DNA of 64,000 nt, from the NCBI GenBank assembly GCA_963747615.1, contig CAVVFP010000004.1:4841-68840 (forward strand), given 5' to 3'. Made by a program: the position numbers and the translations under genes. The stretch is from an uncultured Acidobacteriaceae bacterium (GTDB taxonomy: Bacteria > Acidobacteriota > Terriglobia > Terriglobales > Acidobacteriaceae). Below are positions 8,970 to 64,000 of this stretch, one piece after another; the stretch's first letter is position 1; each line of letters opens with the position of its first letter. The notes beneath the pieces were generated by a model. The model was given only the letters and a program-made list of their open reading frames with translations, was not told the DNA's origin and ran no database searches.

Positions 8970-9027
8970 TACCTGGTACCGAGAAAATGCGACCTTGCTG
9001 GGTACTAGGTACTGGGTGCTAGATACT
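8961..9027 (+). repeat. heptamer-built hairpin (AGTACCT arm / AGGTACT arm)
   Basis: Left AGTACCT AGTACCT GGTACC (8961-8980, includes the GNAT stop TAG). Right GGTACTA GGTACTG GGTGCTA GATACT (9001-9027). 20 positions pair as 17 Watson-Crick plus 3 G:U, the latter only in plus-strand RNA. Confidence 0.85.
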
Positions 9028-9032
9028 GAATT

Positions 9033-10148
9033 ATGAAGATTGAAGCGATCACACTTCGCGAGATTCATATACCGCTCGTCCATTTCTTTGAGACGAGTTT
9101 CGGAAGGACTTATAGCCGCCGCATACTGCTGCTCACCGCGCATTGCGATGGAGTCGATGGCTGGGGAGAATGCGTCGCCGGCGAAGATCCCTTCTACTGC
9201 AGCGAGTGGACTGAGAGCGCATGGCTGACCATCGCCCGCCATGTTGCTCCTGCGGTGATCGGGCGCACCCTCGATTCGGCACGGGACTGTGCCGCTCTTT
9301 TCTCGCGCGTGCGCGGGCACCGCATGGCCAAGGCCGCGGTTGAAAACGCGCTGTGGGATGCCGAAGCTAAACAGAAGAATCTGCCGTTGTGGAAACTACT
9401 GGGCGGCACGCGGACTGAAATCGCTTGCGGAGTCTCCATCGGCATTCAGGATTCCGTCGAGCAGTTACTCGATAAGATCAAGATCGAATTGGCTGCTGGC
9501 TACCGCCGCATTAAAGTGAAGGTCAAACCGGGCTGGGATGTGAACGTGCTGGAGAAAATTCGCTCGCGCTGGGCCGACATTACGCTGAGTTGCGATGCTA
9601 ACTCCGCCTACACACTCGATCAAGTCGAACACTTGCGCAGCTTCGATCAATTCAATCTGCTCATGATTGAGCAGCCGCTCTGGGATGACGACATCTTCTA
9701 CCACGCCCGCCTGCAAAAAGAGCTGCGCACCGCCCTTTGCCTCGACGAGTCCATCGTCAATGCGCGCACCGCCGCGATTGCACTCGAGACCGGCGCATGC
9801 CGCATCATCAACATCAAAGTCGGACGCGTGGGCGGGTTCACAGAGGCCAAAAAGATTCATGACATCTGTCATGCGCAAAAGATCCCGGTCTGGTGCGGAG
9901 GCATGCTTGAATCAGGCATTGGCCGTGCGCACAACATCGCGTTTTCCACGCTTGAGAATTTCAGTTTGCCGGGAGACGTTTCGGCTTCCAAGCGCTACTG
10001 GAAAGAAGACATCATCGATCCCGAGGTGCAAGTTTCACCGCAAGGGATGATTGCGATCAGCGACCAGCCGGGAACGGGTTATCGAATCAGAGAAGATCTG
10101 ATCGAGAAATTGACAGTAAGGAAGGAAACGTTGCGCGCAACAAACTAG
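9033..10148 (+). CDS. enolase-superfamily o-succinylbenzoate synthase / N-succinylamino-acid racemase (OSBS/NSAR subgroup)
   Basis: 371 aa, near-colinear with Amycolatopsis N-acylamino-acid racemase. Shared motifs: KVKVKPGWD (Lys pair), CDANSAY, LMIEQPL, CLDESI, NIKVGRVGG, PVWCGGMLESGIGRA. Confidence 0.85.
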   Translation: MKIEAITLREIHIPLVHFFETSFGRTYSRRILLLTAHCDGVDGWGECVAGEDPFYCSEWTESAWLTIARHVAPAVIGRTLDSARDCAALFSRVRGHRMAKAAVENALWDAEAKQKNLPLWKLLGGTRTEIACGVSIGIQDSVEQLLDKIKIELAAGYRRIKVKVKPGWDVNVLEKIRSRWADITLSCDANSAYTLDQVEHLRSFDQFNLLMIEQPLWDDDIFYHARLQKELRTALCLDESIVNARTAAIALETGACRIINIKVGRVGGFTEAKKIHDICHAQKIPVWCGGMLESGIGRAHNIAFSTLENFSLPGDVSASKRYWKEDIIDPEVQVSPQGMIAISDQPGTGYRIREDLIEKLTVRKETLRATN

Positions 10149-10164: not shown

Positions 10165-12195
10165 TTGTCTGAACCTGTTCATATGGCGCGCCGCGCCCGG
10201 ATCGCCATGGGCGTCGGCGCTCTGCTCCTCGTTCTTTTTCTACAGCTCGCGCTCTCCGTGCACCGCAATTCCATCACCTGGGACGAAGACGACCACATCT
10301 TCGCCGGATACATGTCGTGGAAGCACGCCGACTTCGGCCTGAACCCGGAGCATCCTCCGTTGGTTAAGTTAGTCGCGGCGATTCCTCTGCTCAACATGCC
10401 GCTTACCTTGCCGGTAGTGCAAGACCGCAGCTTCAAGTACGAGGCGTTCCGCGATGGCAAAGACTTCCTCTTCAAGAATGACGCGAATACGATGCTCTTC
10501 CGCGCCCGGATCGCGGTTTCGTTCTTCACTCTTCTGCTCGCCCTTCTCGTTTTTCTGGCTGCGCAGGAAATGTTTGGCACCGGCGCAGGCTTCATCGCTC
10601 TTGCCTTGCTGGCATTCGATCCGAACCTGCTGGCTCATGGTGCGGTCGTCAGCACTGACGCCGGTCTCTCGTGCTTCATGTTCGCAGCGGTTTACGCGTT
10701 CTATCGCTATGTGAAAGTGCCCTCCGCGTGGCGACTGATTGTTACGGGACTTGCCACCGGACTCGCACTCGCCGCCAAGCACACCGGCATTTTGCTTTTC
10801 CCAATGCTGTTTTTGCTGGCGGGCTGCGAAGTCGTGCGAAGCAAGCGTGCTTCAAACACGCAGGGTGGCTTGCAAGCTTCACCGGCGAAGCGTGCCCGGC
10901 AACTCGCGATCGCCCTTGTCGCCATCAGCGTTATCGCGATCACAGTTCTTTGGGGTGCGTACGGATTCCGCTATCAGGCCCGCGCCGAAGGCCGGCAGAT
11001 GAATCCTCCGTTAAGCGAATTCGTGCAGGGACTGTCACGGCCGCACGAAGTTCGCCTGCTCCACACCGTGGCCCGCTTCCATCTCTTGCCTGAGTCTTAC
11101 GTTTACGGACTCGCTGACGTCCGCATTATGTCGGATTTCTACACCAGCTTCCTGCTCGGCAAAGTCTATCCCCACGGCGTGTGGTTCTATTTTCCCGTCG
11201 CCTTCGTGATCAAATCAAGTCTGTCGTTTCTGTTGCTTTTGCTGATTACGATCTGGACGATCGCTGCGCGGCGACTAGCAGCCTGGCGCGAAATCATCTT
11301 CCTGACCGTCCCCCCGATCTTCCATCTGGCTATCGCCATGAGCGCCGGTATGAACATTGGCGTCCGACATATCCTGCCGATGTATCTATTTCTCTCCGTT
11401 CTGATCGGAGGCGCGGCCTGGAGCCTCATTCAGCGCAACCGCAAATGGACCTACGTAATTGTTGTGCTTCTGATCTTCCAGGCGATCTCGACTTCGCGCG
11501 CCTATCCCTCCTACATCGCCTACGCCAATGAATTCTGGGGAGGACCCGCGCGCGTTCATGACTTGCTCAGCGACTCAAACTCCGATTGGGGACAACAGCT
11601 CCACGACGTGCGGCGGTATCTGGATGAACACAACATAAAAGACTGCTGGTTTATCTACTTCGCCGAAGGCGTCGTCGATGCCAGCTACTACAAGATTCCA
11701 TGCCGGCAGCTGCCAACCATGGACTCGCTCTGGATGGAAGAGCCGTTAAACGCTCCGCCCGCCATTGACGGCACGGTGCTGGTTAGTGCGGGCGATCTTT
11801 CTGGCTTTGAATTCGGCGCTGGCCCCTTGAATCCGTATGAGCAATTCAAATCTCTGCGTCCGACGGCGGTGATCGACTATGGAGTTTTCGTCTATAACGG
11901 CCATTTCGAAATTCCCCTCGCGGCATCGATCAGTCACTCGCAGAAGGCCGAATGGTTGCTCGAAGCTAAGCAGCTTCCGGAGGCACTCGAAGAAGCGCAG
12001 GAAGCCGTTGCCCTTGCCCCCGGCGCAGCGAAACCGAATGCGCTACTGGGGGACATCCTGAGCGCCATGGGAAGGCCTGATGAGGCCCGCGCTTCCTACC
12101 AGAAAGCCCGTACCCTGGCGACAACGATTGCGCCTGATTTTCAGGTCGGACTGGCGAACGAACTCGAGAAGAAACTTGCTGTGCCGGGCAGGTAA
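10165..12195 (+). CDS. GT-C (ArnT/PMT-like, GT39-type) membrane glycosyltransferase with C-terminal TPR-like segment
   Basis: 676 aa. Long multi-pass N-terminal domain (ITWDEDDHIFAGYMSW loop, many hydrophobic helices). The soluble C-terminus ends in a TPR-like EALEEAQEAVALAPGAAKPNALLGDILSAMGRPDEARASYQKA. The likely ATG is at 10183. Confidence 0.65.
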   Translation: MSEPVHMARRARIAMGVGALLLVLFLQLALSVHRNSITWDEDDHIFAGYMSWKHADFGLNPEHPPLVKLVAAIPLLNMPLTLPVVQDRSFKYEAFRDGKDFLFKNDANTMLFRARIAVSFFTLLLALLVFLAAQEMFGTGAGFIALALLAFDPNLLAHGAVVSTDAGLSCFMFAAVYAFYRYVKVPSAWRLIVTGLATGLALAAKHTGILLFPMLFLLAGCEVVRSKRASNTQGGLQASPAKRARQLAIALVAISVIAITVLWGAYGFRYQARAEGRQMNPPLSEFVQGLSRPHEVRLLHTVARFHLLPESYVYGLADVRIMSDFYTSFLLGKVYPHGVWFYFPVAFVIKSSLSFLLLLLITIWTIAARRLAAWREIIFLTVPPIFHLAIAMSAGMNIGVRHILPMYLFLSVLIGGAAWSLIQRNRKWTYVIVVLLIFQAISTSRAYPSYIAYANEFWGGPARVHDLLSDSNSDWGQQLHDVRRYLDEHNIKDCWFIYFAEGVVDASYYKIPCRQLPTMDSLWMEEPLNAPPAIDGTVLVSAGDLSGFEFGAGPLNPYEQFKSLRPTAVIDYGVFVYNGHFEIPLAASISHSQKAEWLLEAKQLPEALEEAQEAVALAPGAAKPNALLGDILSAMGRPDEARASYQKARTLATTIAPDFQVGLANELEKKLAVPGR

Positions 12196-17355: not shown

Positions 17356-17497
17356 GATTTTTCCCGACCGTTGCGCGCTGTGCGCTGGGAATAATATCCC
17401 GGCCGAAGGCGATTATGCTGACCACCGCTAGAGCCATGCCCCAGGCGGCGAAGAAAAACCATCCTGCGTCGAAGATGAATCCCTGAACCATATCCAT
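17345..17497 (-). CDS. hypothetical small membrane protein (50 aa)
   Basis: ORF 17345..17575 trimmed to ATG 17497, preceded by AAGGA. MDMVQGFIFDAGWFFFAAWGMALAVVSIIAFG forms one or two hydrophobic helices. Confidence 0.35.
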   Translation of the reverse strand: MDMVQGFIFDAGWFFFAAWGMALAVVSIIAFGRDIIPSAQRATVGKNRRS

Positions 17498-44373: not shown

Positions 44374-44457
44374 GCCGGGATGGCGAAATTGGCAGACGCA
44401 GCGGACTTAAAATCCGCAGGTCCGAAAGGACTGTGGGGGTTCGACCTCCCGGCACCA
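44374..44457 (+). tRNA. tRNA-Leu (anticodon UAA), T-arm about 5 nt short
   Basis: Acceptor GCCGGGA/TCCCGGC. D-arm GCG-AAATTGGCAGA-CGC. Anticodon stem GCGGA/TCCGC with loop CTTAAAA. Long variable arm GGTCC-GAAA-GGACT. Encoded ACCA. After GGGGGTTCGA only CC precedes the acceptor 3' strand, where xxCCCCC is expected. Confidence 0.7.
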
Positions 44458-52189: not shown

Positions 52190-53212
52190 TTACTTTGCCA
52201 CCCCTACCACACCGAAATAGCCGAACTGGTCGTTGGGTCCGGCGGTGAAGAAGAGTTGATTTTTGGCGCCGTTGTTGGGGCTTCCGCCGCCGAACTCGAT
52301 TCCCCACAGTCCGTTGATCTTGATGTTCTTGCCGGAAGTATCCTTGACGATGCCCACCGGTTTTCCGTTGGCGAGATTGTAGCCAATGATGTTGCCGGTG
52401 GAGGTGTTATTGGTGACGAGGAGCGTGCCGCTTAACGGACCGAAATCCTTCGGCGCCACTGCCAGGCCCCAAGGCTGGTTCAGAAGCCCGTTGGAGACGA
52501 GGCGTTTCACGAAGGTTCCGGCTTCCGTAAAGACGTCGATGTAGCCGCCGGGACCGCCGTTGGTGGCCGCGAAGGTAACGTAAACGTGTCCACCGATGTC
52601 CTGAATTCCGAATGGTGCGAAGCCCGCGGGAATCGTGGTATCGGTGAAAGATCCCGTCAGGTTGAAGTTGCCGTCGTAGATGTCAACTTTGTTGTTGGCG
52701 GCATCGGCGGCGAAGAGCGAGTTGCCGGATGCATGACTGGTGATAGCCAGTCCGGTGTAGGACGCTCCGGAGCTGATGGCGGCAACCAGAGTGGCATCCG
52801 GGTTAAATGCCGACCAGCCCTGGATGCTGCCATCCAGAGTGGCGAACAGGAAGGCTGATACCCAGCTGTCGATGGCAAATTCTTGCGAGCCGTTGTAGAC
52901 GATGCCGGTGGGCGTTCCGAAGCCGGTGCCGTCGGCGGTAGGAACGACAACCTCTAGGCTTTGCTGAATGCCGACGCCATTGTAGAGAGTTGACCAACCG
53001 GTCGACTCGTCACTTACCCAGATGGTGCCACCCGGGGCGTAAGCCAGGCCCCAGGGATTTCCCAGTAGCGGCTCGAAATGCGTTGCCTTGCCGTTGATAT
53101 CCGAATCGAGGTAGCGGACCTGATATTGGGCCATGGCGGAGCCGGAACCCAGCACCAGCGTGAGCCCGAGAAGCGCAGAGAGAGTGTAGATGTGACGTAG
53201 TAGACGTTGCAT
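52190..53212 (-). CDS. TIGR03118-family beta-propeller protein, secreted
   Basis: Start taken at ATG 53212 (MQRLLRHIYTLSALLGLTLVLGSGSAMAQ). Family-typical LLGNPWGLAYAPGGTIWVSDESTGWSTLY, FLFATLDGSIQGW, LNQPWGLAVAPKDFGPLSGTLLV, INGLWGIEFGGG, LFFTAGPNDQFGYFG. Confidence 0.75.
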   Translation of the reverse strand: MQRLLRHIYTLSALLGLTLVLGSGSAMAQYQVRYLDSDINGKATHFEPLLGNPWGLAYAPGGTIWVSDESTGWSTLYNGVGIQQSLEVVVPTADGTGFGTPTGIVYNGSQEFAIDSWVSAFLFATLDGSIQGWSAFNPDATLVAAISSGASYTGLAITSHASGNSLFAADAANNKVDIYDGNFNLTGSFTDTTIPAGFAPFGIQDIGGHVYVTFAATNGGPGGYIDVFTEAGTFVKRLVSNGLLNQPWGLAVAPKDFGPLSGTLLVTNNTSTGNIIGYNLANGKPVGIVKDTSGKNIKINGLWGIEFGGGSPNNGAKNQLFFTAGPNDQFGYFGVVGVAK

Positions 53213-53406
53213 GCGATTTTCTCCTTTAGCGTGTGTAGCGAATTTGGGATGGAGCATGGCCGGAGATTTTGCGCGGACTTAACTGTCAGCCCGGCAGATC
53301 ATCGCAATACTAGGAGGGGCGCTTGCGGACATTGTCAGTGAGATGTCATCAGTTTGCACAATTCTTGTCTCTGCTTTGAAACTTGCCGGCAGCGGTTTTT
53401 TTCAGC

Positions 53407-53449
53407 GGGGAAAAAAGTGGCGTTCCGGTTGACTATTCCAGAACGCCAC
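53407..53449 (-). terminator. intrinsic terminator candidate ending the 63.3-53.7 kb minus-strand cluster
   Basis: On the minus strand: GTGGCGTTC-(15-nt loop)-GAACGCCAC followed by TTTTTTCCCC. Confidence 0.55.
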
Positions 53450-53515
53450 ACCTCAGGTTAGGAATCACTTGGAGGCTATCTCGTAAAGAACCCAAGAAAG
53501 CAGGCTGCTCGCTCC

Positions 53516-53580
53516 TCAGGGGCTGAAGCCCGCGTCTTTGCTGGTCTTGGATGGCGCGGCTGAAGCCGCGCCCTTTCAAA
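53516..53580. repeat. REP-like element (two GC hairpins)
   Basis: CAGGGGCTGAAGCCCGCG (53517-53534) and GGCGCGGCTGAAGCCGCGCCCTTTCAAA (53553-53580). Same core as 44101-44130. Confidence 0.8.
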
Positions 53581-53672
53581 GCGATTTATGAGACAGCAAG
53601 AGCTTCCAGTTACAAATCAGTTTTGAGAGATCAAGGCCGCGCCTTGCCGTCGCCTTACGCGACTGTTTCTAT

Positions 53673-54410
53673 CTAGGCTCCCGCTCTGGCTGCTCGTGCC
53701 ATGGGCGGCGGCGGGGTACGCAGTGCTTCTGCCACGCGACCGAAGTACAACCGGTAAGAGTGGTGGATTCCATACATCACCGGGAAGGCCACGAGCGCTA
53801 CCTGCCAGCCCAGATGATGGCTTACCACATTCACCATCGAGGTGAGCCCCGCGCTTACGACGTAATAGGGGAAAGAAAGTTGCACGATGCTGAGCCAGAC
53901 GCGGCGCAGAGCCGCGCCCTCGGCCAGCTTGATGATGCCGGCCACAGGAACGGTCTGCCCGAGGAGGAAAGCAGCGGTTGCCGAAGCGAGCATTGGCGGT
54001 TCCGCCGCCCACCCGGCCTTCCCCAGGCCCCCTGCATTCCAGATCAAGCTCGACATGCTGGTGGCGAATGCCATCATGCTGACGTTGAACAGCATCTGCT
54101 CCGGCTTGAACCTGCTGCCCGATTTCGGCCAGCACTGCACTACCGTGGATATACAAGCGATCGTAACAGCTTCAAGCGCGCTCAAGTTTACGACCGCCAT
54201 CAGCAGGAAGGGCAAGTTGACCGACATGTTGCCGTTAATGCCCGGCAGTTTGATCTTCATGCGCGACGTCACTGCTGCTAGTGCCAGTAGAGCCAGAGCG
54301 TAAGGGGCGTGGAGCGTGTGGCTGGCCACGCCGGCATACAGAGTGCTTGCGATCGCCGCCAGGACCATCAGTCCGATAAAGGTTTGTGTTAGCCGTGTGT
54401 TGGGTTTCAT
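53673..54410 (-). CDS. multi-pass membrane protein, stand-alone paralogue of the N-terminal module of the 842-aa c-di-GMP sensor
   Basis: 245 aa. Motifs shared with residues ~70-270 of ORF 60765..63293: KIKLPGINGNMSVNLPFLL vs KVQLPGIDGTMSVNFLFIL; MLFNVSMMA vs VLFNVFGMM; SFPYYVVSAG vs SFPYYLVGAA; HSYRLYFGR vs RSYRLYLGR. Confidence 0.7.
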   Translation of the reverse strand: MKPNTRLTQTFIGLMVLAAIASTLYAGVASHTLHAPYALALLALAAVTSRMKIKLPGINGNMSVNLPFLLMAVVNLSALEAVTIACISTVVQCWPKSGSRFKPEQMLFNVSMMAFATSMSSLIWNAGGLGKAGWAAEPPMLASATAAFLLGQTVPVAGIIKLAEGAALRRVWLSIVQLSFPYYVVSAGLTSMVNVVSHHLGWQVALVAFPVMYGIHHSYRLYFGRVAEALRTPPPPMARAARAGA

Positions 54411-54446
54411 GATCTCCTCCTTTCTTTGATTTAATTCACACGGCTA

Positions 54447-56279
54447 CTACTGAGGATCGCCTCCAATCGCGAAGACCTCGCCATTCTCGCCGGCCGCGGA
54501 CGTGCCCCAAACCACACTTGCGGCCTGAGTTCCGGTGCCCGTGCTCGAACCCCACACCACACTGAAGGCGGTCAGCGCGGTATTATTCCAGGGCAGCACC
54601 GACGCGCCCCAAACCACTGAGCTACCGCTTACATTTGCTCCCCACACGACGGACGTGCCCCACACCACCGAAGTGCCCCAAACTACCGAACTGGAGGCGA
54701 TACTACCGTTTCCGTTGACCAGGCTAACTGTGCCTTTCGAGAAGACCACCGACGGAGACAGCGCAGCGCCTACGTTGGACGGAGCGAGACTGTTGTCGGA
54801 CAGCGCGCTCTGCAAGTTCATCAGCCCCGAACCGACCGAGAACAGATCGTAATACTCGGTGAAGCTCTGGGAGATAGGCGCGGGAACCCAGAGGGAGGTG
54901 GAGTTGGGAAACGAATTGTAAGTATTCCGCATCAGGCGCGCCTTTACCTGATCTGGAGTCAGATTGCCGTTCTGCTGCAGAAGCAATGCCGCTGCTCCGC
55001 TGACCACTGGCGTCGCCATGCTCGTGCCGCTGAGCGTGAAATAGCTGGACTTCCCGTTGCTGCCGCTGACCAGCGCGGATGGATAGAGGGCTTCCAGGGT
55101 TGCGCCGGGAGCGGACAACGAGACGATGTTGTTGCCGGGAGCCATAATGTCAGGTTTCACCACGTGATCGTAAGTGGTGGGGCCCTTAGAGGTGTAGGTC
55201 GTCATGCTTTCGGCGGACTGCGAAGATGATCCGTTGCTGTTCAATGCGCCCACGGTGATCACGTAAGGATCGTTGCCCGGCGCCGTGATGGTTCCATATC
55301 CGTTGCTGCCATTTACGCTGAGGCGTCCATAGTTGCCCGCGGCTACCACTACCACGATTCCTGCGTTCCACGCGGATTCGACCGCCTGGCATAGAGGATC
55401 CTGGGTGTAGCTCTCGAAGACGCCGCGCCCGAGCGATAGGTTGATCACCTGGATGTTGTACTTATTTTGCAGCGTGATGGCTTCCTGGATGGCCGCGATC
55501 ACTCCGCTGTCGGTGCCGGCGCCGTTAAGATCGAGGGCGCGAAGGTCGACAAGATTCACGTTGGGTGCCACGCCGATATAGTTCCCACCCGAGAGGTAGC
55601 CGTTGCCGCCAACGATTCCGGCAACGTGGGTGCCGTGACCGTAGAGGTCGTACTTGCCTCCGCTCCAGTTGGTATTCGAAGTTCCGGTGAAGTCCTGGCG
55701 ATAGACCACGCGCGAATGAGACTGGTTCGCATTCCAGAGATCGGGATGACTGTCGTTAATGCCGCTATCGATCACGGCCACGCCGATTCCGGTCCCGGTG
55801 TAACCGTCGCTCCAGGCGGTGGGCACGCCCGTAGCCACATCCGTGATGTCATCGAGTCCCTTGACCGGATGGTCGACGCTCACGGACAGGACGTCGGAGT
55901 CCGCCTCCAGAGCAGGCAGCGCGCTTACTGGAATCGTGAGAGCAATGCCCTTGACCAGACTGAGCCTGCGGTTCAGGTGCGCGCCGAGACGTTGCACTCT
56001 GCCTTCCTGCTCAGACTGAGGAGTCTGCTTGTAGCGCACGATAAGATGCGCAGTCTCGTTGCCTGCTGTGCCTTGATGGGCCCGTGCAACCGCACCGGCG
56101 AGGTCCGGGGCGAACTTGCCAACCGGTTTGCCGTTGCCTTCCCAAACTTGGGCGAAGGCGGCCTCTGCCAGCACGAGCAGCAACAGCATGCTGAGGCGCT
56201 TTCCCCAAGCCGCGCTGTGACGCTGGCCTCGATTCGGACTTTGCGGTTTTCGTGTCTGCGATTTTCGTGTCTGCGACAT
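54447..56279 (-). CDS. secreted subtilisin-family (S8) serine peptidase with C-terminal VVWG repeats
   Basis: Catalytic triad motifs VAVIDSGI, HGTHVAGIVGG, GTSMATPVVSGAAALL. Start taken at ATG 56279 (MSQTRKSQTRK...RLSMLLLLVLAEAAFAQ); the ORF opens at 56414. Six SVVWG(T/A/S) units in the last ~70 aa. Confidence 0.85.
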   Translation of the reverse strand: MSQTRKSQTRKPQSPNRGQRHSAAWGKRLSMLLLLVLAEAAFAQVWEGNGKPVGKFAPDLAGAVARAHQGTAGNETAHLIVRYKQTPQSEQEGRVQRLGAHLNRRLSLVKGIALTIPVSALPALEADSDVLSVSVDHPVKGLDDITDVATGVPTAWSDGYTGTGIGVAVIDSGINDSHPDLWNANQSHSRVVYRQDFTGTSNTNWSGGKYDLYGHGTHVAGIVGGNGYLSGGNYIGVAPNVNLVDLRALDLNGAGTDSGVIAAIQEAITLQNKYNIQVINLSLGRGVFESYTQDPLCQAVESAWNAGIVVVVAAGNYGRLSVNGSNGYGTITAPGNDPYVITVGALNSNGSSSQSAESMTTYTSKGPTTYDHVVKPDIMAPGNNIVSLSAPGATLEALYPSALVSGSNGKSSYFTLSGTSMATPVVSGAAALLLQQNGNLTPDQVKARLMRNTYNSFPNSTSLWVPAPISQSFTEYYDLFSVGSGLMNLQSALSDNSLAPSNVGAALSPSVVFSKGTVSLVNGNGSIASSSVVWGTSVVWGTSVVWGANVSGSSVVWGASVLPWNNTALTAFSVVWGSSTGTGTQAASVVWGTSAAGENGEVFAIGGDPQ

Positions 56280-56583
56280 GATCTCACCCTTCTTTGGCAC
56301 AAAGAGCGTGCTTAAGACTCGGCTTAGCTTGTGCACGGCCGATGCCAATCGTATGGCCGTAAGTATTGTAAACAATGGGAATTGCGGTGAAGGTTTGCGT
56401 CGTTCTTGGGCCACTCTGTCCTCTAGCGCGGGGCGTGGGACAGTTTGTCCCGCAGACCGCGCCGGTTGTGATGACTTTGGTTTCGGAGGCCATGATTACC
56501 AGCGGCGATTGAGGAAACGAGGACCGACGGGCGTTCGCACCCGTGCGTGGAGAGTTGCAGTTGGAGCCTCGATGATTGAAAGA

Positions 56584-57414
56584 TTATCGCGCTGCGGCAG
56601 TTTTCGACTGCGCTCTCGGTTGCAAGAGTCGGGGGATCGCCGCCATTAACTTCTGCGTGTATTCGTGCTGGGGGTTGTCGAAGGTCTGTTCGGTCGTGCC
56701 GCACTCTACTATCTCGCCGTGATGAAGAATGGCGATGCGGTCGCAAATTCCCGCCACTGAAGCGAGATCGTGAGAAATGTAGAGAATGGCCATGCCGGTG
56801 GAGCGGCTGAGTTCACGAAACAGCGACAGAATTTCGGATTGGGTGATCACATCGAGAGCGCTCGTTGCTTCGTCGGCGATGAGCAGCGCGGGACGATGCA
56901 TGACCGCCATGGCAATCAGCACGCGCTGGGCTTGACCTACGCTCATCTGCGAAGGATATTTGCGCAGGAATTCATCGTCGGACGGCAGGGAGACGCTCTG
57001 CAACGAACTTCTGATCGCGTTCGCGCAATCGGCGCTCGTGCCCGAGGCATGGGCTCGCCACGCCTCTTTGAGTTGGGTGCGAATCTTGAGCGCAGGATTC
57101 AGAGACGACAGTGGACTTTGCAAGACCAGCGCGATCGAACGTCCGCGTAGAGTCCGCAACTCACGCTCCGAAAGTTGCAAGAGATCAGCATCCTCAAAAC
57201 GGATGGCGCCTTCGGCCACCGACCGCTTCTTGTCGAGAAGCCCGAGAATCGCCATGGCAAGCGTGCTTTTGCCGGAGCCGCTTTGTCCGACCAGACCCAG
57301 CACCTCGCCGCGCTGGATTTCGAACTGGACATCACGCAAGACCGGCGGCTTATCGGCGTACTGCACGGAGAAGCGCGCCGACAGCAGGGTCTGATTTTGT
57401 GACGTGGACAGCAT
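56584..57414 (-). CDS. ABC transporter ATP-binding protein (Dpp/Opp-type)
   Basis: Walker A GQSGSGKST, signature-like QMSVGQAQR, Walker B LLIADEATSALD. ATG 57414 is 13 nt after the binding-protein stop. Confidence 0.85.
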   Translation of the reverse strand: MLSTSQNQTLLSARFSVQYADKPPVLRDVQFEIQRGEVLGLVGQSGSGKSTLAMAILGLLDKKRSVAEGAIRFEDADLLQLSERELRTLRGRSIALVLQSPLSSLNPALKIRTQLKEAWRAHASGTSADCANAIRSSLQSVSLPSDDEFLRKYPSQMSVGQAQRVLIAMAVMHRPALLIADEATSALDVITQSEILSLFRELSRSTGMAILYISHDLASVAGICDRIAILHHGEIVECGTTEQTFDNPQHEYTQKLMAAIPRLLQPRAQSKTAAAR

Positions 57415-57427
57415 TTTGCCTTGAGCT

Positions 57428-59089
57428 TTAATTCCCAGCCACGGTAAGCCGCTCGGCATTCCAGAATGTCTGCGGAGATAGAATCACCGGGGCGGCGCCG
57501 TGTACCGAGGTCGAAACTGCGGAAAGCGCATTTTTGTTGATCAGAAAAATGAATGGTTCCTGCTCGACGACGATCTCCTGCACGCGATCGAAGGCTTCTT
57601 TCCGCTTTTTAGCATCGCTGGAAGACGCCTGCGCCCGCATCAGACGGTCAATCTCCGCTTCCCATGCGGTTTCCGGAGTTTTCTGCTGCGGGTTCCACTG
57701 GTGATTCTCGGAAGAACTCAGCCACACGTTCATTTCGCCGTTCGGATCCAAATCCACATTGGTCAGGCCGAGGATGATGGCCTCGTAATCGAAAGTCTGG
57801 GTCATGCGCTCGATCAGGGAAGGGAAGTCAAGCGTGACCACGTTGACGTGGATGCCGATCTTTTGCAGGTCGTCCTGGATCAGCACTGCCATGCGCTCGC
57901 GGTATTTGTTGCCGGCGTTCGTGATGATGGAAAACACGACCTCGTTGCCGTCTTTGCCTTTGAGCGTTCCGTTTTCCATGCGGAAGCCCTCGTCCTCGAG
58001 CGCCTTCAACGCCGCATCGGAGCTGTAGGTCTGGGGCTTGAGCTTGCTGTTGAACCAGAACTTATTCGCCGGTGAGAACGGTCCCACCGCCGGTTGCGCG
58101 TGCCCGTGAAAGACCACGCGGCTTAGGTCGTCGCGGTTGATCGCTTCCGAAATCGCACGCCGGAAGCTGGCCGACCGGAACCAGTTCTTTTTGTAAGATG
58201 GAATCGGCGACTTCGCGACCTGGTTAAACCAGAGTTGCTCGCTATCAAGCGATGCTCCTGCATCGTGTACCAGTTGGGGCGAAGTCGCGGCCAGCTTGTC
58301 GAAATATTCGCTGTCGAGAGAATTGATCAGGTCCAGCTCTCCGCGCTTGAAGCGGAGCAGTTCCACATCTCGGTTGGGCTGGATATCAAGCTTTATCGAA
58401 TCCAGATATGGAAGTTTGCGGCCCTGGTCGTCGGTTTTCCAGTAGTTGGGATTGCGCTTCAAGAGAACGGATGAACCGGCTTTGTAGTCGGCTACCATGA
58501 ACGGTCCCAGGACTGCCATTTCTTTTTTCGGCGAGCGTTCGGAAAGAATCGCGACCTGATCGAAGAGGCGATCGAGTCCGGCTACTTGCGCCGGGAACGT
58601 GATCGCAATCTGCGTCGGCGAGATCACCTTGGTTTCGACGTTTCCCGTGCCTGAACGAAATGCGTCTCCCGTGGGGGAATGCAGCGCCGGGTCCATCAGT
58701 TGCTGGACGGTGTAAGCCACATCGCCCGCGGAAAAGGGAGTGCCATCGGAGAACAAAATGCCGCTGCGCAGGCGGAAGGAGATCTGGCGCCCATCTTTTG
58801 ATACTTTCCATGAAACCGCCAGTTCGGGTTCGAGAGCTTGCGTGCTGCGATTCACCCGGACCAGCACGCCTCCCGTCAAATAGCGGATCGCGGCGGAGGC
58901 ATCGTCTTCCACTTTGAGCGGATCAAAGGTCTTGGGCTCGGTGCGCAGGCAGAACCTCAGCTCGCCGCCTTGAGCTATCGCGTGCCCAAGCAGAAATGCC
59001 AGGCAGAGCATCGCCGTTGCGATTGACTTCCCGCAGGGACTCGTCATCTTTATCTTTATCTGTTCGAAAGTGTTCTTGTGGCGCCTCAT
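57428..59089 (-). CDS. ABC transporter substrate-binding protein, family 5 (peptide/nickel type)
   Basis: About 553 aa from ATG 59089 (MRRHKNTFEQIKIKMTSPCGKSIATAMLCLAFLLGHAIAQ). Family-5 features: LRFCLRTEPKTFDPLKV..., NPNYWK, WNPQQ. Confidence 0.85.
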   Translation of the reverse strand: MRRHKNTFEQIKIKMTSPCGKSIATAMLCLAFLLGHAIAQGGELRFCLRTEPKTFDPLKVEDDASAAIRYLTGGVLVRVNRSTQALEPELAVSWKVSKDGRQISFRLRSGILFSDGTPFSAGDVAYTVQQLMDPALHSPTGDAFRSGTGNVETKVISPTQIAITFPAQVAGLDRLFDQVAILSERSPKKEMAVLGPFMVADYKAGSSVLLKRNPNYWKTDDQGRKLPYLDSIKLDIQPNRDVELLRFKRGELDLINSLDSEYFDKLAATSPQLVHDAGASLDSEQLWFNQVAKSPIPSYKKNWFRSASFRRAISEAINRDDLSRVVFHGHAQPAVGPFSPANKFWFNSKLKPQTYSSDAALKALEDEGFRMENGTLKGKDGNEVVFSIITNAGNKYRERMAVLIQDDLQKIGIHVNVVTLDFPSLIERMTQTFDYEAIILGLTNVDLDPNGEMNVWLSSSENHQWNPQQKTPETAWEAEIDRLMRAQASSSDAKKRKEAFDRVQEIVVEQEPFIFLINKNALSAVSTSVHGAAPVILSPQTFWNAERLTVAGN

Positions 59090-59895
59090 GCGGCCACCTC
59101 CTCCTGCTTGGAAAGCAAAAGCTGAAACGACGTCACTACCACCACCAGCAAAATCAACGGCACGAACTTCCATGGTTCTTCACCACCGGAAACCAACCCT
59201 TCTAACTCTTTCAACAAACTTCCCCACGAGGGCATGGGCTCAGCGACGCCCAGCCCGAGAATGCCCAGGTTAGCCTCACTCAAGATGAAGACCGGAATCG
59301 AAATCCAGAATTGCGCATAGAGCACGGGCTTCAAGTTCGGCACCACATGCACCCAGAACAGTCTTTGTCCGGGAAGGCCCGCCGCGCGCGCCTGCCGCAC
59401 AAAGTCCGATCCGCGCAAATATCCCGCAGTCGTACACAAAACTCTTGCCGCGGTCGTCCAGCCCAGAAGACCCAGCAGCATGAAAGTCATCAGCACCGAG
59501 ACCAAGGGAGACACATTCAGCGGCATCAACGCCCGCGCCGTGATCAACAGGAACAACCAGGGCAGTGACAAAAATAAATCGGTCACCGCCATCGCCATTC
59601 GCGCCCAGATGCCGCCTAAGTATCCCGCGAGTCCTCCAATCAATGCCGCCATCAACGTTGACAGGAGTGCTGCGGCTGGAGCCAGCAACAGCGAAATACG
59701 AGTTCCGTAAAGCACGCGGGCAAACCGGTCGCGGCCAAGCTCGTCCGTGCCGAGCCAGTGCGTGTGCGACGGGGGCGCATCCGTTGCCTCGCGAAACTGC
59801 TTCGCGTATCCCGCGGGAGCAAGCCAGTTCGCAGCCACCGATGCGCCCAGCACCAGCACCAAAACCGCGCATGCCAGTTTTTGCCAAAGATTCAT
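59086..59895 (-). CDS. ABC transporter permease (DppC/OppC-like)
   Basis: ATG 59895 (MNLWQKLACAVLVLVLGASVAANWLAPAGY...HWLGTDELGRDRFARVLYG). ATGA overlaps at both ends. Confidence 0.85.
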   Translation of the reverse strand: MNLWQKLACAVLVLVLGASVAANWLAPAGYAKQFREATDAPPSHTHWLGTDELGRDRFARVLYGTRISLLLAPAAALLSTLMAALIGGLAGYLGGIWARMAMAVTDLFLSLPWLFLLITARALMPLNVSPLVSVLMTFMLLGLLGWTTAARVLCTTAGYLRGSDFVRQARAAGLPGQRLFWVHVVPNLKPVLYAQFWISIPVFILSEANLGILGLGVAEPMPSWGSLLKELEGLVSGGEEPWKFVPLILLVVVVTSFQLLLSKQEEVAA

Positions 59896-60764
59896 CCTTC
59901 CTGGCTCCGCACCACATGACCGATTACATCTGCACTGGAATTGGCCAGCAAGGTTACCAGCGTCACCAGAACCGTGATGTTCACCAGCAGCGGCAGATCG
60001 CGCGCCAGAGCGGCTTGCCAAGCCAGTTGTCCAATGCCGGCGAGGCCGCACAAAGCTTCGACTGGAATCGCTGCTCCGACCGCCATGCTTACCGATACTC
60101 CCGCGACGGCTAGCAACTGGGGGGTCACCACGGGGACTACGTGCCAGAAGAGAATTCGTGCCTCGCCCAGCCCTTTCGCTCTCGCGGTGATAATGTGAGG
60201 CCGCGAATAGGCCTTCACCAGCAAGTTTCGCGCATAGCGGTAAGTGCGCGGGAACACGATGAGCGCAATCGCCAGTGAGCCGGGTGCATTCCACAACACC
60301 GAGAGCAATGCCAGGACAGCGGCGGGAATGCAAAGCAACGTCCCGCTCAGGACAGTAGTGAGCGTGTCATAGATAGAAAGCCGCAGCCAGGCCGCGCTCA
60401 AGGCCAGGGTCAAGGTCAGCGCCCAGGCCAGGACAAGGCCGATCGTCAGCAAGCGCAGCGTGAGCGGAGCGCGATTACGCAGCAACGTGCGCACGGGTTG
60501 CCCCAGTGCAAGCGAAGTTCCCAGATCGCCGTTCGCCGCTCGCTTCATGTAAGAGAAATAAAAGTGGAAGACGTTGTGGTCTTGACGCCGGGCATCGCGC
60601 AGCGCCTGCACGCTCTGCGCGTTCAAATGCGGATCCAGTTCTCGCTCATCCGTATCGAAGCCGGGGGCGAGCCGCATCAAGGTCGCGGAAAGAAATCCTC
60701 CGAGAAGAACTGTCGCCAACAGGGCCAGAGCGTGCCCGGTAATCTTCAAGGGGAGGCTTGGCAT
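59892..60764 (-). CDS. ABC transporter permease (DppB/OppB-like)
   Basis: 290 aa. Six hydrophobic helices. YSRPHIITARAKGLGEARILFWHVVP is the conserved permease loop. The ATG abuts the stop of the sensor gene. Confidence 0.85.
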   Translation of the reverse strand: MPSLPLKITGHALALLATVLLGGFLSATLMRLAPGFDTDERELDPHLNAQSVQALRDARRQDHNVFHFYFSYMKRAANGDLGTSLALGQPVRTLLRNRAPLTLRLLTIGLVLAWALTLTLALSAAWLRLSIYDTLTTVLSGTLLCIPAAVLALLSVLWNAPGSLAIALIVFPRTYRYARNLLVKAYSRPHIITARAKGLGEARILFWHVVPVVTPQLLAVAGVSVSMAVGAAIPVEALCGLAGIGQLAWQAALARDLPLLVNITVLVTLVTLLANSSADVIGHVVRSQEG

Positions 60765-63293
60765 CTATTCTCCCGAAGCGCCTTGTGCCAGGGGGTTAAG
60801 GCCGGCAGCTTGTGCGTGGTGAGTCTGCTTGACGGCGTACATGCGGCGATCAGCTTCGGCGAGTAAGGCTTCGACGTCATATCCGTCTTCCGGACAGAAG
60901 GCCGTCCCTACACTCAGCGTAATCATGTCCTGTCCGCAAGTGTGGCGTCCGGCTTCCATGGCTGCCTGGTTCAAACGTATTGTCTTTTCCGCGGCAGCCT
61001 CGGCGGTGAGCCCGAGCGCTGTTACTACAAACTCATCGCCGCCCATGCGCGCCACATAGTCGTAACCACGGCACGCATCCCGCAGCCGCGAGCCGAATTC
61101 GCGGAGCAGCTTGTCTCCCTCCAGATGCCCGAACGAATCGTTGATCTTTTTGAGCCCGTCAATATCGCAAACCATTACCGCCAGCGAAGTTTTCATGCGC
61201 CGGCAGCGTGCTACTTCCTGCGCCAGGTGCACGAACAGCGAGCGTGCATTGGGCAAGCCCGTGAGAAAGTCCGTGGTCGCCGAACTTTCTGCCTGCTGGT
61301 ACTTCAGAGCGTTCTCCACCGAGAGCGCCACTTTCGAAGCCACGGCCAGCAGAATCCGCAGATGATCGGGAGTAAACGCGTCCGCGGTCGAGTGATACAT
61401 AGCGAGCACACCGACTACGCCGTTCAATCCTTGCAAGGGAACGGCTAGCGCGGCAGACAGAACCGCGTGTTTCTCCGGGTCGGGGCGGTAGCCAGCTTCG
61501 ACTTGAGGATTGCCGTTGATGATGGGTTTGCAGTTTTCCGCTACCCATCCGCACAAGCCCTCGCCCATGCGAATTTTCAGCGAAGATAGCGCTCGAAAGT
61601 TTTCGCCGCTCACCAATTCCGGCAGCAGCCAGCCGTTGCGGTTCACGAAGACAGCAATGGAGTCGTAGGGAACCAGCTTACGCAACCGCATCGACAGCAC
61701 CGACAGCGTCTCGCTCAGGCTCAACGAGTTGCCCAAGTCCTGGCTCAACTCGAACATGGCCTGCGCCTCCTGCCGGGCGGATGCGATCGACGTCAGGAAG
61801 TCGGAATCGTTGTGCGAGCTGTCGGCCGAGGTCTCGAATCCGGTGGCAGGAGCGAGCCCGCGCTCCACCCGCAGGCCTTGCGAGAATCCACGGGGAACGG
61901 AGCCTTCTTCGTGGGTTTGCGCGACGATTCGTTCCAGGTCGACAAAGCGGCGCTCCAAAACCTCTACGATCTTCGGGTCAAACCATGTTCCAGATCTATC
62001 TTTCACAGTACTCATGGCGCGATCCAGCGGCATGGCTGGACGGTATTGCCGGTCTGAGGCCAGAGCATCCAGACAATCCACGACCGACAAAATTCTTGCT
62101 CCGATGGGAATCTCTTCGCCAGCGAGGCCTGCAGGATAGCCCGACCCGTCCCACCTTTCATGATGCGAGCGCACGATGGGAGCCACGGGATATGGGAAGG
62201 CCACGCGATCCAGGATTTCCGCACCCACCAGCGGATGCACTTTCATCTTCTCGAACTCTTCCGGAGTCAGCCTGCCCGGTTTATTGATGATGTGCTCGGG
62301 CACGGCGAGCTTGCCAATGTCGTGCAGCAGCGCCGCCGCTCGCAAGGCTTCGATCTCGTCGGCAGACAGGCCTATTTCTTTCGCGATTTCCACCGCGTAG
62401 GTTCGCACGCGTTGCAGGTGTGTATGCGTGGTATGGTCCTTGGCCTCGATGGCCAGGGCGAGAGCCTCGATGGTTCGCATGTTGAGCGACGCAATCTCCT
62501 CGACATGCCGCTTCTCAATTTCTACCCGCTCTTTCTCGGCCTCCAGCCTTCCCAGATAGAGGCGATAGGAACGGTAGACCCAGTAGATCACCGGAATAAC
62601 GAGCAGCGATGTCTGCCAGCCGGCGCGCTGGTTGATGATTCCTACCAGGCCGACGACGGCTGCGCCGACGAGATAGTAGGGGAACGACCAGAAGTAGCAC
62701 TCCTTCCAAACTTTACGGCTCGACTTGTTTTCTGTAAGAGCAATGACGACGGAAATGGGCAGCGTATTTGCCAGAAAGAAAACCAAGGCCGCCACCATCA
62801 GCAAGATGGGCTTATTGCTGCCCATTCTCCCGTTGAGCCAGTGGTAGGTGACGTAACAGAACGCGCTGGCGTTCGCCATCATTCCAAAAACATTGAAGAG
62901 AACCTTCACCGGATCGAGCCGGTTTCGCGCATTCCAGACGCTCTGCACCAGAGTGGCGGTGCAGCCAATGACGAGCGTCTCGGGCAGGCTCAGTTCCATG
63001 ACGCCAAGAAGGATGAAAAGGAAGTTCACTGACATCGTGCCGTCGATGCCCGGCAGTTGTACCTTGAGGCTCGAGGCCAAGACGGCCACAACCAGATAAC
63101 AGATAAATCGCGGCAGGTCTGCCGACTGCCAGTGCCACAGAGCGGAGCACAGCACTACCATCCCCAACGAAGCGGTGATCCCGACAAATAGCTTTGTCCC
63201 AGTCGACATTGCGGCGTCAGTTTTCTTGCAGGGGGGAGGTGGCAGACCTTGCCCGTTGCGCGGGAAGACTATTTCCGCGCACACGTCCGGCAT
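60765..63293 (-). CDS. membrane sensor with HD-GYP, GAF and GGDEF domains (c-di-GMP turnover)
   Basis: 842-aa ORF (alternative ATG at 63209). N-terminal ~260-aa multi-pass module. HD-GYP (LLHDIGKLAVP, HHERWDGSGYP). GAF-like middle. GGDEF (DFLTGLPNARS..., DIDGLKKINDSFGHLEGD, ARMGGDEFVV). Confidence 0.85.
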   Translation of the reverse strand: MPDVCAEIVFPRNGQGLPPPPCKKTDAAMSTGTKLFVGITASLGMVVLCSALWHWQSADLPRFICYLVVAVLASSLKVQLPGIDGTMSVNFLFILLGVMELSLPETLVIGCTATLVQSVWNARNRLDPVKVLFNVFGMMANASAFCYVTYHWLNGRMGSNKPILLMVAALVFFLANTLPISVVIALTENKSSRKVWKECYFWSFPYYLVGAAVVGLVGIINQRAGWQTSLLVIPVIYWVYRSYRLYLGRLEAEKERVEIEKRHVEEIASLNMRTIEALALAIEAKDHTTHTHLQRVRTYAVEIAKEIGLSADEIEALRAAALLHDIGKLAVPEHIINKPGRLTPEEFEKMKVHPLVGAEILDRVAFPYPVAPIVRSHHERWDGSGYPAGLAGEEIPIGARILSVVDCLDALASDRQYRPAMPLDRAMSTVKDRSGTWFDPKIVEVLERRFVDLERIVAQTHEEGSVPRGFSQGLRVERGLAPATGFETSADSSHNDSDFLTSIASARQEAQAMFELSQDLGNSLSLSETLSVLSMRLRKLVPYDSIAVFVNRNGWLLPELVSGENFRALSSLKIRMGEGLCGWVAENCKPIINGNPQVEAGYRPDPEKHAVLSAALAVPLQGLNGVVGVLAMYHSTADAFTPDHLRILLAVASKVALSVENALKYQQAESSATTDFLTGLPNARSLFVHLAQEVARCRRMKTSLAVMVCDIDGLKKINDSFGHLEGDKLLREFGSRLRDACRGYDYVARMGGDEFVVTALGLTAEAAAEKTIRLNQAAMEAGRHTCGQDMITLSVGTAFCPEDGYDVEALLAEADRRMYAVKQTHHAQAAGLNPLAQGASGE

Positions 63294-63519
63294 GCCTATT
63301 CAATGAAATCCTATTGGTGTTACAGGGTTCAAAGTAGCTTACTGAGGTAACCGCTGCGGCAAGAAATGGCTCGCGGTTTGGCGATTGACTTGATGGATTT
63401 GTTAATGGTGTGCCCCCATCTTTACTCCAACGGTAACCAATTACCTTCGTCACGATCCGAAGCTGCATACTTCCTGCGACGCGTGCTCTCTGTGTCAAGA
63501 TCAACTCCAAACCTGCGGA

Positions 63520-64000
63520 ATGCCAACGGTAAATCTCAATTCGAAGTCTCAAGGGCCGGCGGGCGCTATTCACGGCGGCGTCGTTTCGGAAAAGTCGCAT
63601 CCTTTCGACATCCATGCCAGCCCGATCACGAAAGTCGCATTCTTCTCTGCCGATCTTGAAGGCATTGTCACGGGCTGCAACGCATCCGCTCTGAAGATCT
63701 TCGGCGGTACTGCAGCGGAGGTTCTCGGACGAAAGCTGGCGGCGGTCGCTGCAAATGACGATAGCGCAGGGCCGCGTCAACTGCAGGAGACCATGGTAGC
63801 CGCGGTGCTGCAGGACGATCAGTACTGGTCTTCGCTTCAGTGCAAGAGCAAAGCTGGGAAAAGTTTTCCGGCAGAGTTGTCGATCACGCTGCTTCGGGAT
63901 GGTGGTTCCGCGCCGGCAGGGATGGTCGCCATGATTTCTGTGACGGAGGAGGAATCAAACCTGCCGACTGCCCTGAACAAGACGAGAGGAGCGGATGAGA
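63520..64000 (+). CDS. PAS-domain protein, 5' part (runs off the window; not in the ORF track)
   Basis: Open frame from ATG 63520 to the window end with no stop. ...ITKVAFFSADLEGIVTGCNASALKIFGGTAAEVLGRKLAAVAA...YWSSLQCKSKAGKSFPAELSITLLRDGGSAPAGMVAMISV is PAS-like. Confidence 0.6.
   Translation, partial: MPTVNLNSKSQGPAGAIHGGVVSEKSHPFDIHASPITKVAFFSADLEGIVTGCNASALKIFGGTAAEVLGRKLAAVAANDDSAGPRQLQETMVAAVLQDDQYWSSLQCKSKAGKSFPAELSITLLRDGGSAPAGMVAMISVTEEESNLPTALNKTRGADE

Follow-up and report, generated by a model that had tools for sequence, protein, structure and literature searches.

We analysed a stretch of 64,000 nucleotides (nt) from an uncultured Acidobacteriaceae bacterium (contig CAVVFP010000004.1, called the window below; G+C about 58%), in which a membrane-bound sensor with domains for the turnover of c-di-GMP (cyclic diguanosine monophosphate) stands beside an importer, a secreted protease and a transcriptional activator. 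Comparison with related genomes indicates that this region is a conserved signalling module of the Terriglobales, a clade of soil Acidobacteriota, which may be organised in three transcription units. The first would be a tightly joined operon of the sensor and a PepT importer with a single ATPase. The second would be a gene on the opposite strand that encodes an enhancer-binding protein of the sigma-54 type carrying PAS and PilZ domains. In the third, a sigma-54 promoter with two GGACA-N3-TGTCC enhancers would drive the genes of a subtilase (S8) and of a free-standing MASE9 membrane protein. An earlier note on this DNA had described seven genes together, from the sensor to the MASE9 protein (53673-63293), with the first convincing intrinsic terminator only at 53407-53449. 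The minus strand and the functions that it gave for all seven were recovered from the list of open reading frames (ORFs), Pfam and NCBIfam; the activator gene lies outside these coordinates. By their sequence, the seven genes are not one operon, because a conserved sigma-54 promoter and enhancer sites within the ATPase-S8 gap give the S8/MASE9 pair a promoter of its own.

These units can be joined into a circuit in which the sensor drives the PilZ activator, the activator drives S8/MASE9 and the importer takes up the products; we regard the case for this circuit as evenly balanced. The sensor would set the local c-di-GMP level, which the PilZ domain of the activator would read, gating sigma-54 transcription of the protease/MASE9 pair. 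The secreted protease would digest extracellular protein, and the binding protein and importer would take up the products, feeding the cell and acting back on the sensor via its GAF or MASE9 domain. The induced free MASE9 protein would modulate the sensor, either by pairing with its MASE9 domain or by competing for its ligand or partner. What the sequences show is the gene content, the intact catalytic and binding motifs, the promoter and enhancer elements and how these are conserved. We infer the pairing of activator and promoter, the ability of PilZ to bind c-di-GMP, the substrate and each feedback arm, as well as the link from proteolysis through uptake to c-di-GMP that the earlier note had proposed.

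The relatives used throughout were the best 80 of 577 from one scan of GTDB species representatives, with sensor identities of 58-93%. All 80 belong to a single order-level clade, the Terriglobales; the closest, with up to 93% identity in the sensor, carry the label Acidobacteriaceae or Candidatus Sulfotelmatobacter and were assembled from metagenomes. Labels L001-L089 denote individual relative loci. Start codons in the relatives were set by rule, without curation. The presence of components was scored by tblastn with each module protein, and linkage was counted in 54 loci, those whose sequence extends 9 kb or more to each side of the sensor. The neighbourhood described in the earlier note proved strongly conserved, with sensor and importer adjacent in 49/54 loci. 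Both permeases and the binding protein were found in 49/54, the ATPase in 48/54, the activator in 49/54 and its PilZ tail in 48/54, S8 in 43/54 and the free MASE9 protein in 38/54.

The control elements of the third unit emerged from an alignment of 36 ATPase/S8 spacers. The 5' half was unalignable, followed by the sharp blocks GGGACAAACTGTCCC, GGACAGAGTGGCCC, CAA..ACTTAC and TTGGCATCGGCCGTGCA, the last of which has the exact -24 GG / -12 GC spacing of sigma-54 promoters. The footprint yielded the consensus TGG[CT]-N8-TGCA with two palindromes GGACA-N3-TGTCC upstream of it, at constant distances of 74-75 and 103-104 nt. Together, the -24 GG / -12 GC element and the upstream palindromes, both kept in relatives, have the form expected for the target of an enhancer-binding protein. 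The promoter was present at the equivalent place in 42/53 S8 copies, relocated pairs included; among the 42 copies that reach 58% identity or more, just one lacked it. The spacer never fell below about 220 nt in relatives. By itself, the N8 promoter pattern occurs in the window no more often than chance would give (7 sites against 5.8 expected), so that its support comes from conservation and not from occurrence. Pattern scans for sigma-70 promoters and terminators likewise gave matches no more frequent than in shuffled sequences. Within the window, the palindrome was confined to the two sites upstream of S8; the sensor operon is therefore probably not governed by them in this arrangement.

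The same cassette was found 5' of the relocated S8/MASE9 pairs of L052, L053 and L060, and, in L089, 5' of the S8 gene that leads the sensor operon. In L084 it stands before an S8/MASE9 pair that is unlinked, in a different genomic context, where MASE9 is just 38% identical. In L074 and L076 (S8 divergent, 45-49% identity), a GGACA-N3-TGTCC palindrome lies about 70-80 nt 5' of a GG-N10-GC element, and L080 and L065 have TGTCC half-sites only, about 57-70 nt 5' of such an element. Loci without S8 were also without the enhancer cassette.

Further features of the spacer were recorded. Downstream of the proximal enhancer site and ahead of the promoter, where the site of a DNA-bending, IHF-like protein is expected, stands the block CAA..ACTTAC (56357-56371), which matches the IHF consensus partially. 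In L001, the ATPase/S8 spacer is enlarged to 934 nt. A further GG-N10-GC element within it, on the other strand (near 17364, minus strand) and 97 nt from the same palindrome, may be a divergent sigma-54 promoter of an inserted gene. A 69-codon ORF in the 304-nt gap of the window was considered as a precursor-peptide gene and rejected, since short blocks in indel-rich spacers are the pattern of DNA sites.

Sigma-54 promoters require an enhancer-binding protein. A gene encoding GAFTGA and Walker A motifs divergently adjoins the sensor in almost all relatives with upstream sequence. The fragment of this gene in the window is 56% identical to residues 52-202 of the L020 orthologue, which comprises PAS, Sigma54_activat (4.4e-68), AAA_lid, HTH_8 (3e-17) and a C-terminal PilZ domain (38.9 bits; cut-off 22.5). 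The orthologues have the Sigma54_activat AAA+ domain with GAFTGA and the HTH_8 domain of enhancer-binding proteins; the window, whose end truncates the gene, holds the PAS N-terminus alone, and for this reason a motif search within it for GAFTGA and Walker A came out empty. A homologue search with the 160-residue fragment returned no matches, and neither the activator nor S8 reached an NCBIfam equivalog. We consider it likely that the activator beside the sensor drives the S8 promoter via the palindromes, and the PilZ-fused activator probably switches on the secreted protease.

The PilZ domain exceeded its Pfam cut-off in seven diverse orthologues (33.7-45.9 bits). A PDB sequence search with the PilZ tail gave no PilZ matches. 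An AlphaFold2 (AF2) model of the end comprising helix-turn-helix (HTH) and PilZ had predicted local distance difference test (pLDDT) values of 86-96 over the PilZ barrel and showed the six-stranded barrel with C-terminal helix that is typical of the fold. Foldseek matched it to the c-di-GMP-bound PilZ domains of Alg44, MapZ, BcsA and YcgR (E values as low as 7e-6; target template modelling (TM) scores 0.68-0.73), and MrkH was also among the structural matches. With the PilZ motifs defined as in 10.1101/814665, [D/N]hSxxG takes the form NLSTGG throughout the 38 aligned clusters and among close orthologues, and distant orthologues have N-x-S-x-G-G with the variants NVSSGG, NLSSSG and NLGSSG. A search with the HTH-PilZ end gave 2301 clusters at 90% identity; the best 120 all combined PilZ with HTH_8 and were annotated merely as sigma-54 regulators or hypothetical proteins. 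That the c-di-GMP made or removed by the sensor is read by this PilZ domain is a possibility that we place just below even. In L089, a free-standing PilZ gene of 121 codons (10926-11291) directly follows the activator gene, which is apparently frameshifted there.

Several observations weigh against the circuit. The activator gene of the window ends after 160 codons, and its PilZ domain is deduced from the relatives. No canonical terminator separates the ATPase and S8 genes, and read-through may occur. The best NCBIfam scores of the importer are shared by nickel, opine and oligopeptide models, all below cut-off, and its substrate is not assignable from sequence. Eleven relatives (the 66-71% identity group) have the activator, sensor and importer with neither S8 nor the enhancer cassette within 10 kb, and four sensor homologues occur by themselves. 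In nearly all orthologues, QxxxR (EQQKFFR; QKFFR or QRYFR) takes the place of RxxxR as the first PilZ motif, with RQHFR in L065 only, a distant orthologue. Loss of the first arginine abolishes c-di-GMP binding in several studied PilZ proteins.

This last point leads to the main rival, in which the PAS domain governs the activator (by way of a small ligand, light or redox) and PilZ, either degenerate or devoted to protein interactions, leaves c-di-GMP unbound. The sensor would then supply c-di-GMP to other targets, and adjacency would reflect co-regulation instead of a signal passing from sensor to activator. The QxxxR motif and the very presence of a PAS domain speak for it, as does the fast evolution of the PAS/N-terminal region (56% identity where the sensor has 93%), and PilZ domains without binding exist (10.1101/814665). 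However, EQQKFFR and NLSTGG are near-invariant among orthologues that are otherwise 45-80% identical, as would be seen for a ligand site. The modelled fold is canonical, C-terminal helix included, one lineage has an extra free PilZ gene beside the activator, and the activator-sensor pair is the most stable adjacency of the module. We judge control by PAS to be unlikely. The features of the module region, from the activator gene down to the terminator behind the S8/MASE9 unit, are collected in Table 1.

Table 1. Features of the module region, with positions in the window
Feature	Position	Strand	Basis
Activator gene, 5' part (160 codons, PAS), cut by window end	63520..64000	+	PAS E = 4.5e-8
Divergent control region, activator/sensor	63210..63519	.	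alignment of 22 relatives
Conserved block GTTTGGAGTTGATCTTGACACAG, activator/sensor intergenic	63490-63512		alignment of 22 relatives
Conserved palindrome GGTAATTGGTTACC, activator/sensor intergenic	63432-63445		alignment of 22 relatives
Conserved block GTTACCTCAGTAAGC, activator/sensor intergenic	63337-63351		alignment of 22 relatives
Stem-loop in sensor mRNA leader, GCGCGGAA...TTCCCGCGC	63258..63280	-	RNAalifold, 15 relatives
Sensor, 814 residues, MASE9-HD-GYP-GAF-GGDEF	60765..63209	-	Pfam, motifs, start-codon alignment
ATP-binding cassette (ABC) permease 1, OppB/DppB/NikB-like, 290 residues	59892..60764	-	BPD_transp_1 1.4e-15
ABC permease 2, OppC/NikC-like, 269 residues	59086..59895	-	BPD_transp_1
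Secreted family-5 (cluster C) substrate-binding protein, N-terminal signal peptide	57428..59089	-	SBP_bac_5 2e-68
Sole transporter ATPase	56584..57414	-	ABC_tran + oligo_HPY
Distal enhancer (upstream activating sequence, UAS) site GGGACAAACTGTCCC, 103 nt 5' of promoter TGG	56437-56451	.	footprint
Proximal enhancer (UAS) site AGGACAGAGTGGCCC, 74 nt 5' of promoter TGG	56408-56422	.	footprint
Sigma-54 type promoter TGGCATCGGCCGTGCA, GG-N10-GC, about 50 nt 5' of S8 ATG	56332..56347	-	conservation in relatives
Secreted subtilase S8, 610 residues, signal peptide	54447..56279	-	Peptidase_S8 1e-52; motifs
Free-standing MASE9 membrane protein, 245 residues, strong ribosome-binding site AAAGGAGGAG	53673..54410	-	PF20972 27.5 bits
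Intrinsic terminator ending S8/MASE9 unit, 12-bp stem with one mismatch, T6	53411..53449	-	read from sequence

The sensor matched the profiles of MASE9 (25.4 bits, marginal against a cut-off of 24.3), HD_5 (6.9e-41), GAF and GGDEF (4.1e-39). Besides the HD_5 profile, its HD-GYP domain has HDIGK at 296 and HHERWDGSGYP at 349. In the GGDEF domain, RGYDYVARMGGDEF at 714-727 contains RGYD, an RxxD I-site, five residues before GGDEF. Since the motifs for each activity are intact, both synthesis and breakdown of c-di-GMP are plausible. The earlier note had started the sensor at ATG 63293, which does not hold: the true start is ATG 63209-63207, where ATGTCG is kept in relatives. ATG 63293 lies in the leader, 5' of a covarying hairpin, and the leader showed no coding conservation in the alignment of relatives. 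Of the seven base pairs of this stem-loop, three have compensatory changes, and no T-run follows. Upstream of it, the GGTAATTGGTTACC and GTTACCTCAGTAAGC blocks are palindromic around GTTAC/GTAAC, unlike the GGACA-N3-TGTCC enhancer motif. The three intergenic blocks are probably sites of another regulator or of both divergent promoters.

The gene junctions described earlier were all reproduced. The TAG of the sensor (60765-60767) abuts the ATG of permease 1 (60762-60764), with GGGAGA 6 nt before the ATG as read directly from the sequence; ATGA overlaps join permease to permease (59892-59895) and permease to binding protein (59086-59089), and 13 nt separate the binding-protein stop from the ATPase ATG (57414). 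The ATPase-S8 and S8-MASE9 gaps are 304 and 36 nt. In nearly all of about 60 relatives, the sensor/permease gap is 0-68 nt; three outliers of about 370-400 nt are apparently frameshifted ORFs. MASE9 always follows S8 orthologues, at a usual distance of 30-38 nt (72-180 nt in three outliers).

The importer, of type I, has the family-5 binding protein, two BPD_transp_1 permeases and oligo_HPY ATPase of the PepT family (Opp/Dpp/Nik, Transporter Classification 3.A.1.5). The ATPase carries Walker A GQSGSGKS, signature MSVGQ and Walker B LLIADE, and its oligo_HPY tail is short. Opp/Dpp/Nik systems usually carry two ATPase genes. The two different subunits (D and F) of the family are lacking here: one ATPase gene was present in the window and in every relative, and a search of both for a second gave none, which implies that the ATPase is presumably homodimeric. 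Permease 1 is short and divergent, and the transporter is atypical. All four components scored far under every cut-off of the NCBIfam equivalog models (Opp/Dpp/Nik/Cnt/Gsi/Sap), e.g., 147.8 vs 393 for NikA and 241.6 vs 318.7 for NikD. The nearest solved structures of the binding protein are remote: AppA (1xoc, 3.6e-30), AapF, HbpA and NikA. The earlier description as a peptide-type importer was borne out for membership in the PepT family; for peptide as the substrate it was not, given the NCBIfam scores shared by nickel, opine and oligopeptide models.

The close coupling of the first unit can also be read differently, with the binding protein and transporter serving chiefly as a co-sensor for the MASE9 enzyme instead of for nutrition. 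Its membrane domain would read the binding protein in its liganded state or the cycle of transport, much as in NspS-MbaA (Vibrio cholerae) or in the transporter-dependent sensing of BceAB-BceS. The (near-)abutting sensor and permease genes would favour fixed stoichiometry and co-assembly. The atypical transporter, with its single ATPase and short, divergent permease 1, would fit as well, and in L070 the binding-protein gene alone follows the sensor. However, a complete importer with intact ATPase motifs is retained everywhere except L070, and the periplasmic loops of MASE9, short in both the published description and the AF2 model, offer scant surface for a binding protein. A co-sensor role seems to us clearly unlikely. 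NspS-MbaA and ArtI-STM1987 (Salmonella) do resemble the present module in that a solute-binding protein is linked, genetically or functionally, to a GGDEF enzyme in the membrane. The periplasmic domains of those sensors are sizeable, and no transporter belongs to NspS itself. In the present case, by contrast, a full importer is part of the sensor operon, and MASE9 is almost wholly intramembrane (10.1101/2021.11.05.467447).

A third explanation regards the region as an ordinary nutrient importer (for peptide or nickel/metallophore) and an ordinary exoprotease that lie beside signalling genes through inherited synteny, without coupling. Every component does come from very common families, the transporter has no NCBIfam equivalog or special feature, and all relatives are from one order-level clade. 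However, genes that border the module, be it in the window or in its closest relative, were retained in just 0-19/55 loci, compared with 38-49/54 for the module genes. The components were still together across no fewer than eight arrangements that differ in gene order and orientation. S8-MASE9 is downstream in the window-type order and is relocated upstream on the opposite strand in L052, L053 and L060. S8 is divergent from the sensor in L065, L074, L076 and L080; the importer, S8 and sensor are co-directional in L077, and the importer is divergent in L078 and L058. In L089, S8, sensor and importer form one block (independent gene calls, precomputed Pfam), and in L082 MASE9 is followed by a permease. 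The enhancer/sigma-54 cassette accompanies S8 wherever it is relocated. Because the module genes stay together through rearrangements while the flanking genes do not, the linkage goes beyond shared ancestry, and the already disfavoured explanation by synteny is improbable. A peptide-pheromone loop, in which S8 matures a signal peptide that the importer brings in and GAF senses, as in the Opp-dependent RRNPP systems of Firmicutes, would account for a secreted protease, a PepT importer and a cytoplasmic ligand-binding domain within one module, but no small gene conserved as a precursor was observed, conservation in the 304-nt gap is that of DNA motifs and not of a reading frame, and no obvious ORF follows the MASE9 gene, which makes this loop very improbable.

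The proposed output of the circuit, S8, has the features of a subtilase (MEROPS S8): the triad D171/H215/S420, with VIDSG at 169, HGTHV at 215 and GTSMA at 418. Among solved structures, the secreted subtilase Tk-SP (3afg, 5.8e-45) comes closest to it. Six SVVWG repeats without Pfam match occupy residues 531-592 of its C-terminal region (54500-54690), and an 18-nt DNA tandem repeat lies at 54640-54690 in this part. At the start of the gene, a 15-nt tandem repeat (56242-56276; 2.3 copies, 95% match) encodes SQTRK-SQTRK in the n-region of the signal peptide.

The 245-residue protein behind S8 had been called an orphan copy of the membrane module of the sensor. Paralogy was confirmed by 38% identity over 200 residues to the first 230 residues of the sensor (E = 6e-41). 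The module itself is the published MASE9 domain (PF20972), matched above the cut-off in both proteins by profile search (27.5 bits in the free protein, where it is the sole Pfam match), and a free MASE9 protein is no oddity. A full-library profile search gave 1169 representatives (50% clustering) of free-standing MASE9 at E up to 1e-3, and most of the top 150 matches were 220-260 residues long. The gene contexts of distant members were on contigs too short to inform in 3/4 cases. The free and sensor MASE9 share the hallmark residues KLPG..MSVN, Q92, FN, SFPYY and YRSYRLY. Proteins of about 460 residues (P0168, P0169, P0186, P0189 and similar) carry a tandem pair of MASE9 stretches, an arrangement absent from the MASE9 description.

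The AF2 model of the free protein (pLDDT 93.9) has helices at 5-29, 35-48, 66-75, 78-93, 103-126, 134-164, 168-200 and 203-231. It follows the published pattern of about eight helices, short external loops and a short intramembrane hairpin pair, here 66-75 and 78-93. Foldseek against the PDB returned no significant match; the top matches, consistent but all weak, were energy-coupling factor (ECF) S components, namely RibU, ThiT, FolT, BioY and NikM/CbiM (best E = 6.7e-3; query TM 0.41-0.55). S components are helical bundles that bind small ligands within the membrane, in accord with the published suggestion for MASE9, whereas MASE9 has extra helices and the conserved KLPG..MSVN hairpin. EcfT/EcfA genes near MASE9 were found neither in the window region nor in the loci. 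We treat the modelled resemblance as a lead compatible with intramembrane ligand binding and claim no homology.

Searches of the literature, as far as its incomplete coverage allowed, found no described system of this kind, in agreement with the earlier note, and no description of a PilZ-fused enhancer-binding protein. The MASE9 domain and the architecture MASE9-HD-GYP-GAF-GGDEF are already published, and the domain is common to the sensor, TM1467 (T. maritima) and HdgA (S. venezuelae) (10.1101/2021.11.05.467447). Its authors describe an N-terminal sensor module, suggest intramembrane ligand binding and know no member of known function; no gene neighbourhood, free-standing form or ligand is reported, and S8 pairing, importer linkage and a PilZ activator are unmentioned for their proteins (10.1101/2021.11.05.467447).

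Among known activators, FleQ (P. aeruginosa), FlrA/FlrC (V. cholerae), EpsI/Nla24 (M. xanthus) and the atypical VpsR are likewise AAA+/Fis-HTH proteins, and the present system resembles the FleQ type in its proposed c-di-GMP-dependent output and in a sigma-54 promoter with upstream sites. In the known enhancer-binding proteins that respond to c-di-GMP, it is the AAA+ domain to which the nucleotide binds (PMC10333796, PMC8316039). Here, in contrast, a separate PilZ domain of canonical fold follows the HTH, and the input domain is PAS instead of REC or FleQ-N. With MrkH/MrkJ (Klebsiella pneumoniae), the module shares the gene for a PilZ activator beside a c-di-GMP-metabolising enzyme and a target operon. 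MrkH is a two-barrel PilZ protein that works with sigma-70 on a fimbriae target, with no transporter or protease, unlike the AAA+ sigma-54 activator here. As a functional analogy only, the role proposed for free MASE9 recalls MgrB-PhoQ, where an output-induced membrane protein acts back on the sensor; MgrB is an unrelated peptide of 47 residues, whereas the modulator here would be a full paralogue of the sensor membrane domain.

Dual GGDEF/HD-GYP enzymes, PilZ receptors, sigma-54 activators, PepT importers and subtilases are already known kinds. What seems undescribed is the fusion of PilZ to the activator, its fixed pairing with a MASE9 enzyme and importer, and the sigma-54 cassette driving a subtilase and free MASE9. 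A bolder version, which we hold to be rather unlikely, would make the PilZ activator a new class of c-di-GMP-dependent transcription factor. With the MASE9 cyclase/phosphodiesterase dedicated to it and the importer transcribed alongside, it would close a loop by which the cell senses the products of its secreted protease and tunes protease output, with free MASE9 as an induced feedback subunit. It is speculative and doubtful that S8 products enter by the importer and act back via GAF or MASE9, and equally that free MASE9 modulates the sensor.

Terriglobales such as Candidatus Sulfotelmatobacter are plentiful in peat and acidic soils, where nitrogen supply is governed by extracellular proteolysis. 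To our knowledge, very little is known about how Terriglobales control this process, and the module offers a concrete candidate regulatory circuit for their exoprotease production. It also points to a common architecture of a putative c-di-GMP receptor, a sigma-54 activator with PilZ. MASE9, so far function-less, gains a genomic context (importer, subtilase, free-standing paralogue) and, in a modelled fold that may resemble ECF S components, a possible structural lead. A defined enhancer motif, GGACA-N3-TGTCC, together with the promoter would ease regulon prediction.

The intrinsic terminator reported downstream of the MASE9 gene is indeed present as a hairpin with T6; the pattern scanner overlooked it owing to its 9-nt loop. 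Within the 224 nt between the MASE9 stop and this terminator, there is a perfect G+C-rich hairpin, GGCGCGGC-TTCA-GCCGCGCC (53553-53572, minus strand; no T-run), followed by the similar GCGGGCTTCAGCCCC. These could be elements like repetitive extragenic palindromes (REP) or a processing site. Rfam gave no match within the module region, neither at the gathering threshold (whole-window scan) nor at E up to 1 (53200-64000), the latter also for a GEMM-I/II c-di-GMP riboswitch that might control the protease. In L084, a gene pair with the look of a toxin and its immunity protein (RNAse_A_bac and a faint CdiI_2-like match; 8790-9604) lies directly 3' of the unlinked S8/MASE9 genes. Elsewhere in the window, a tRNA that ARAGORN did not report was found by Rfam at 44374-44454 on the plus strand (38.1 bits; gathering score 29).

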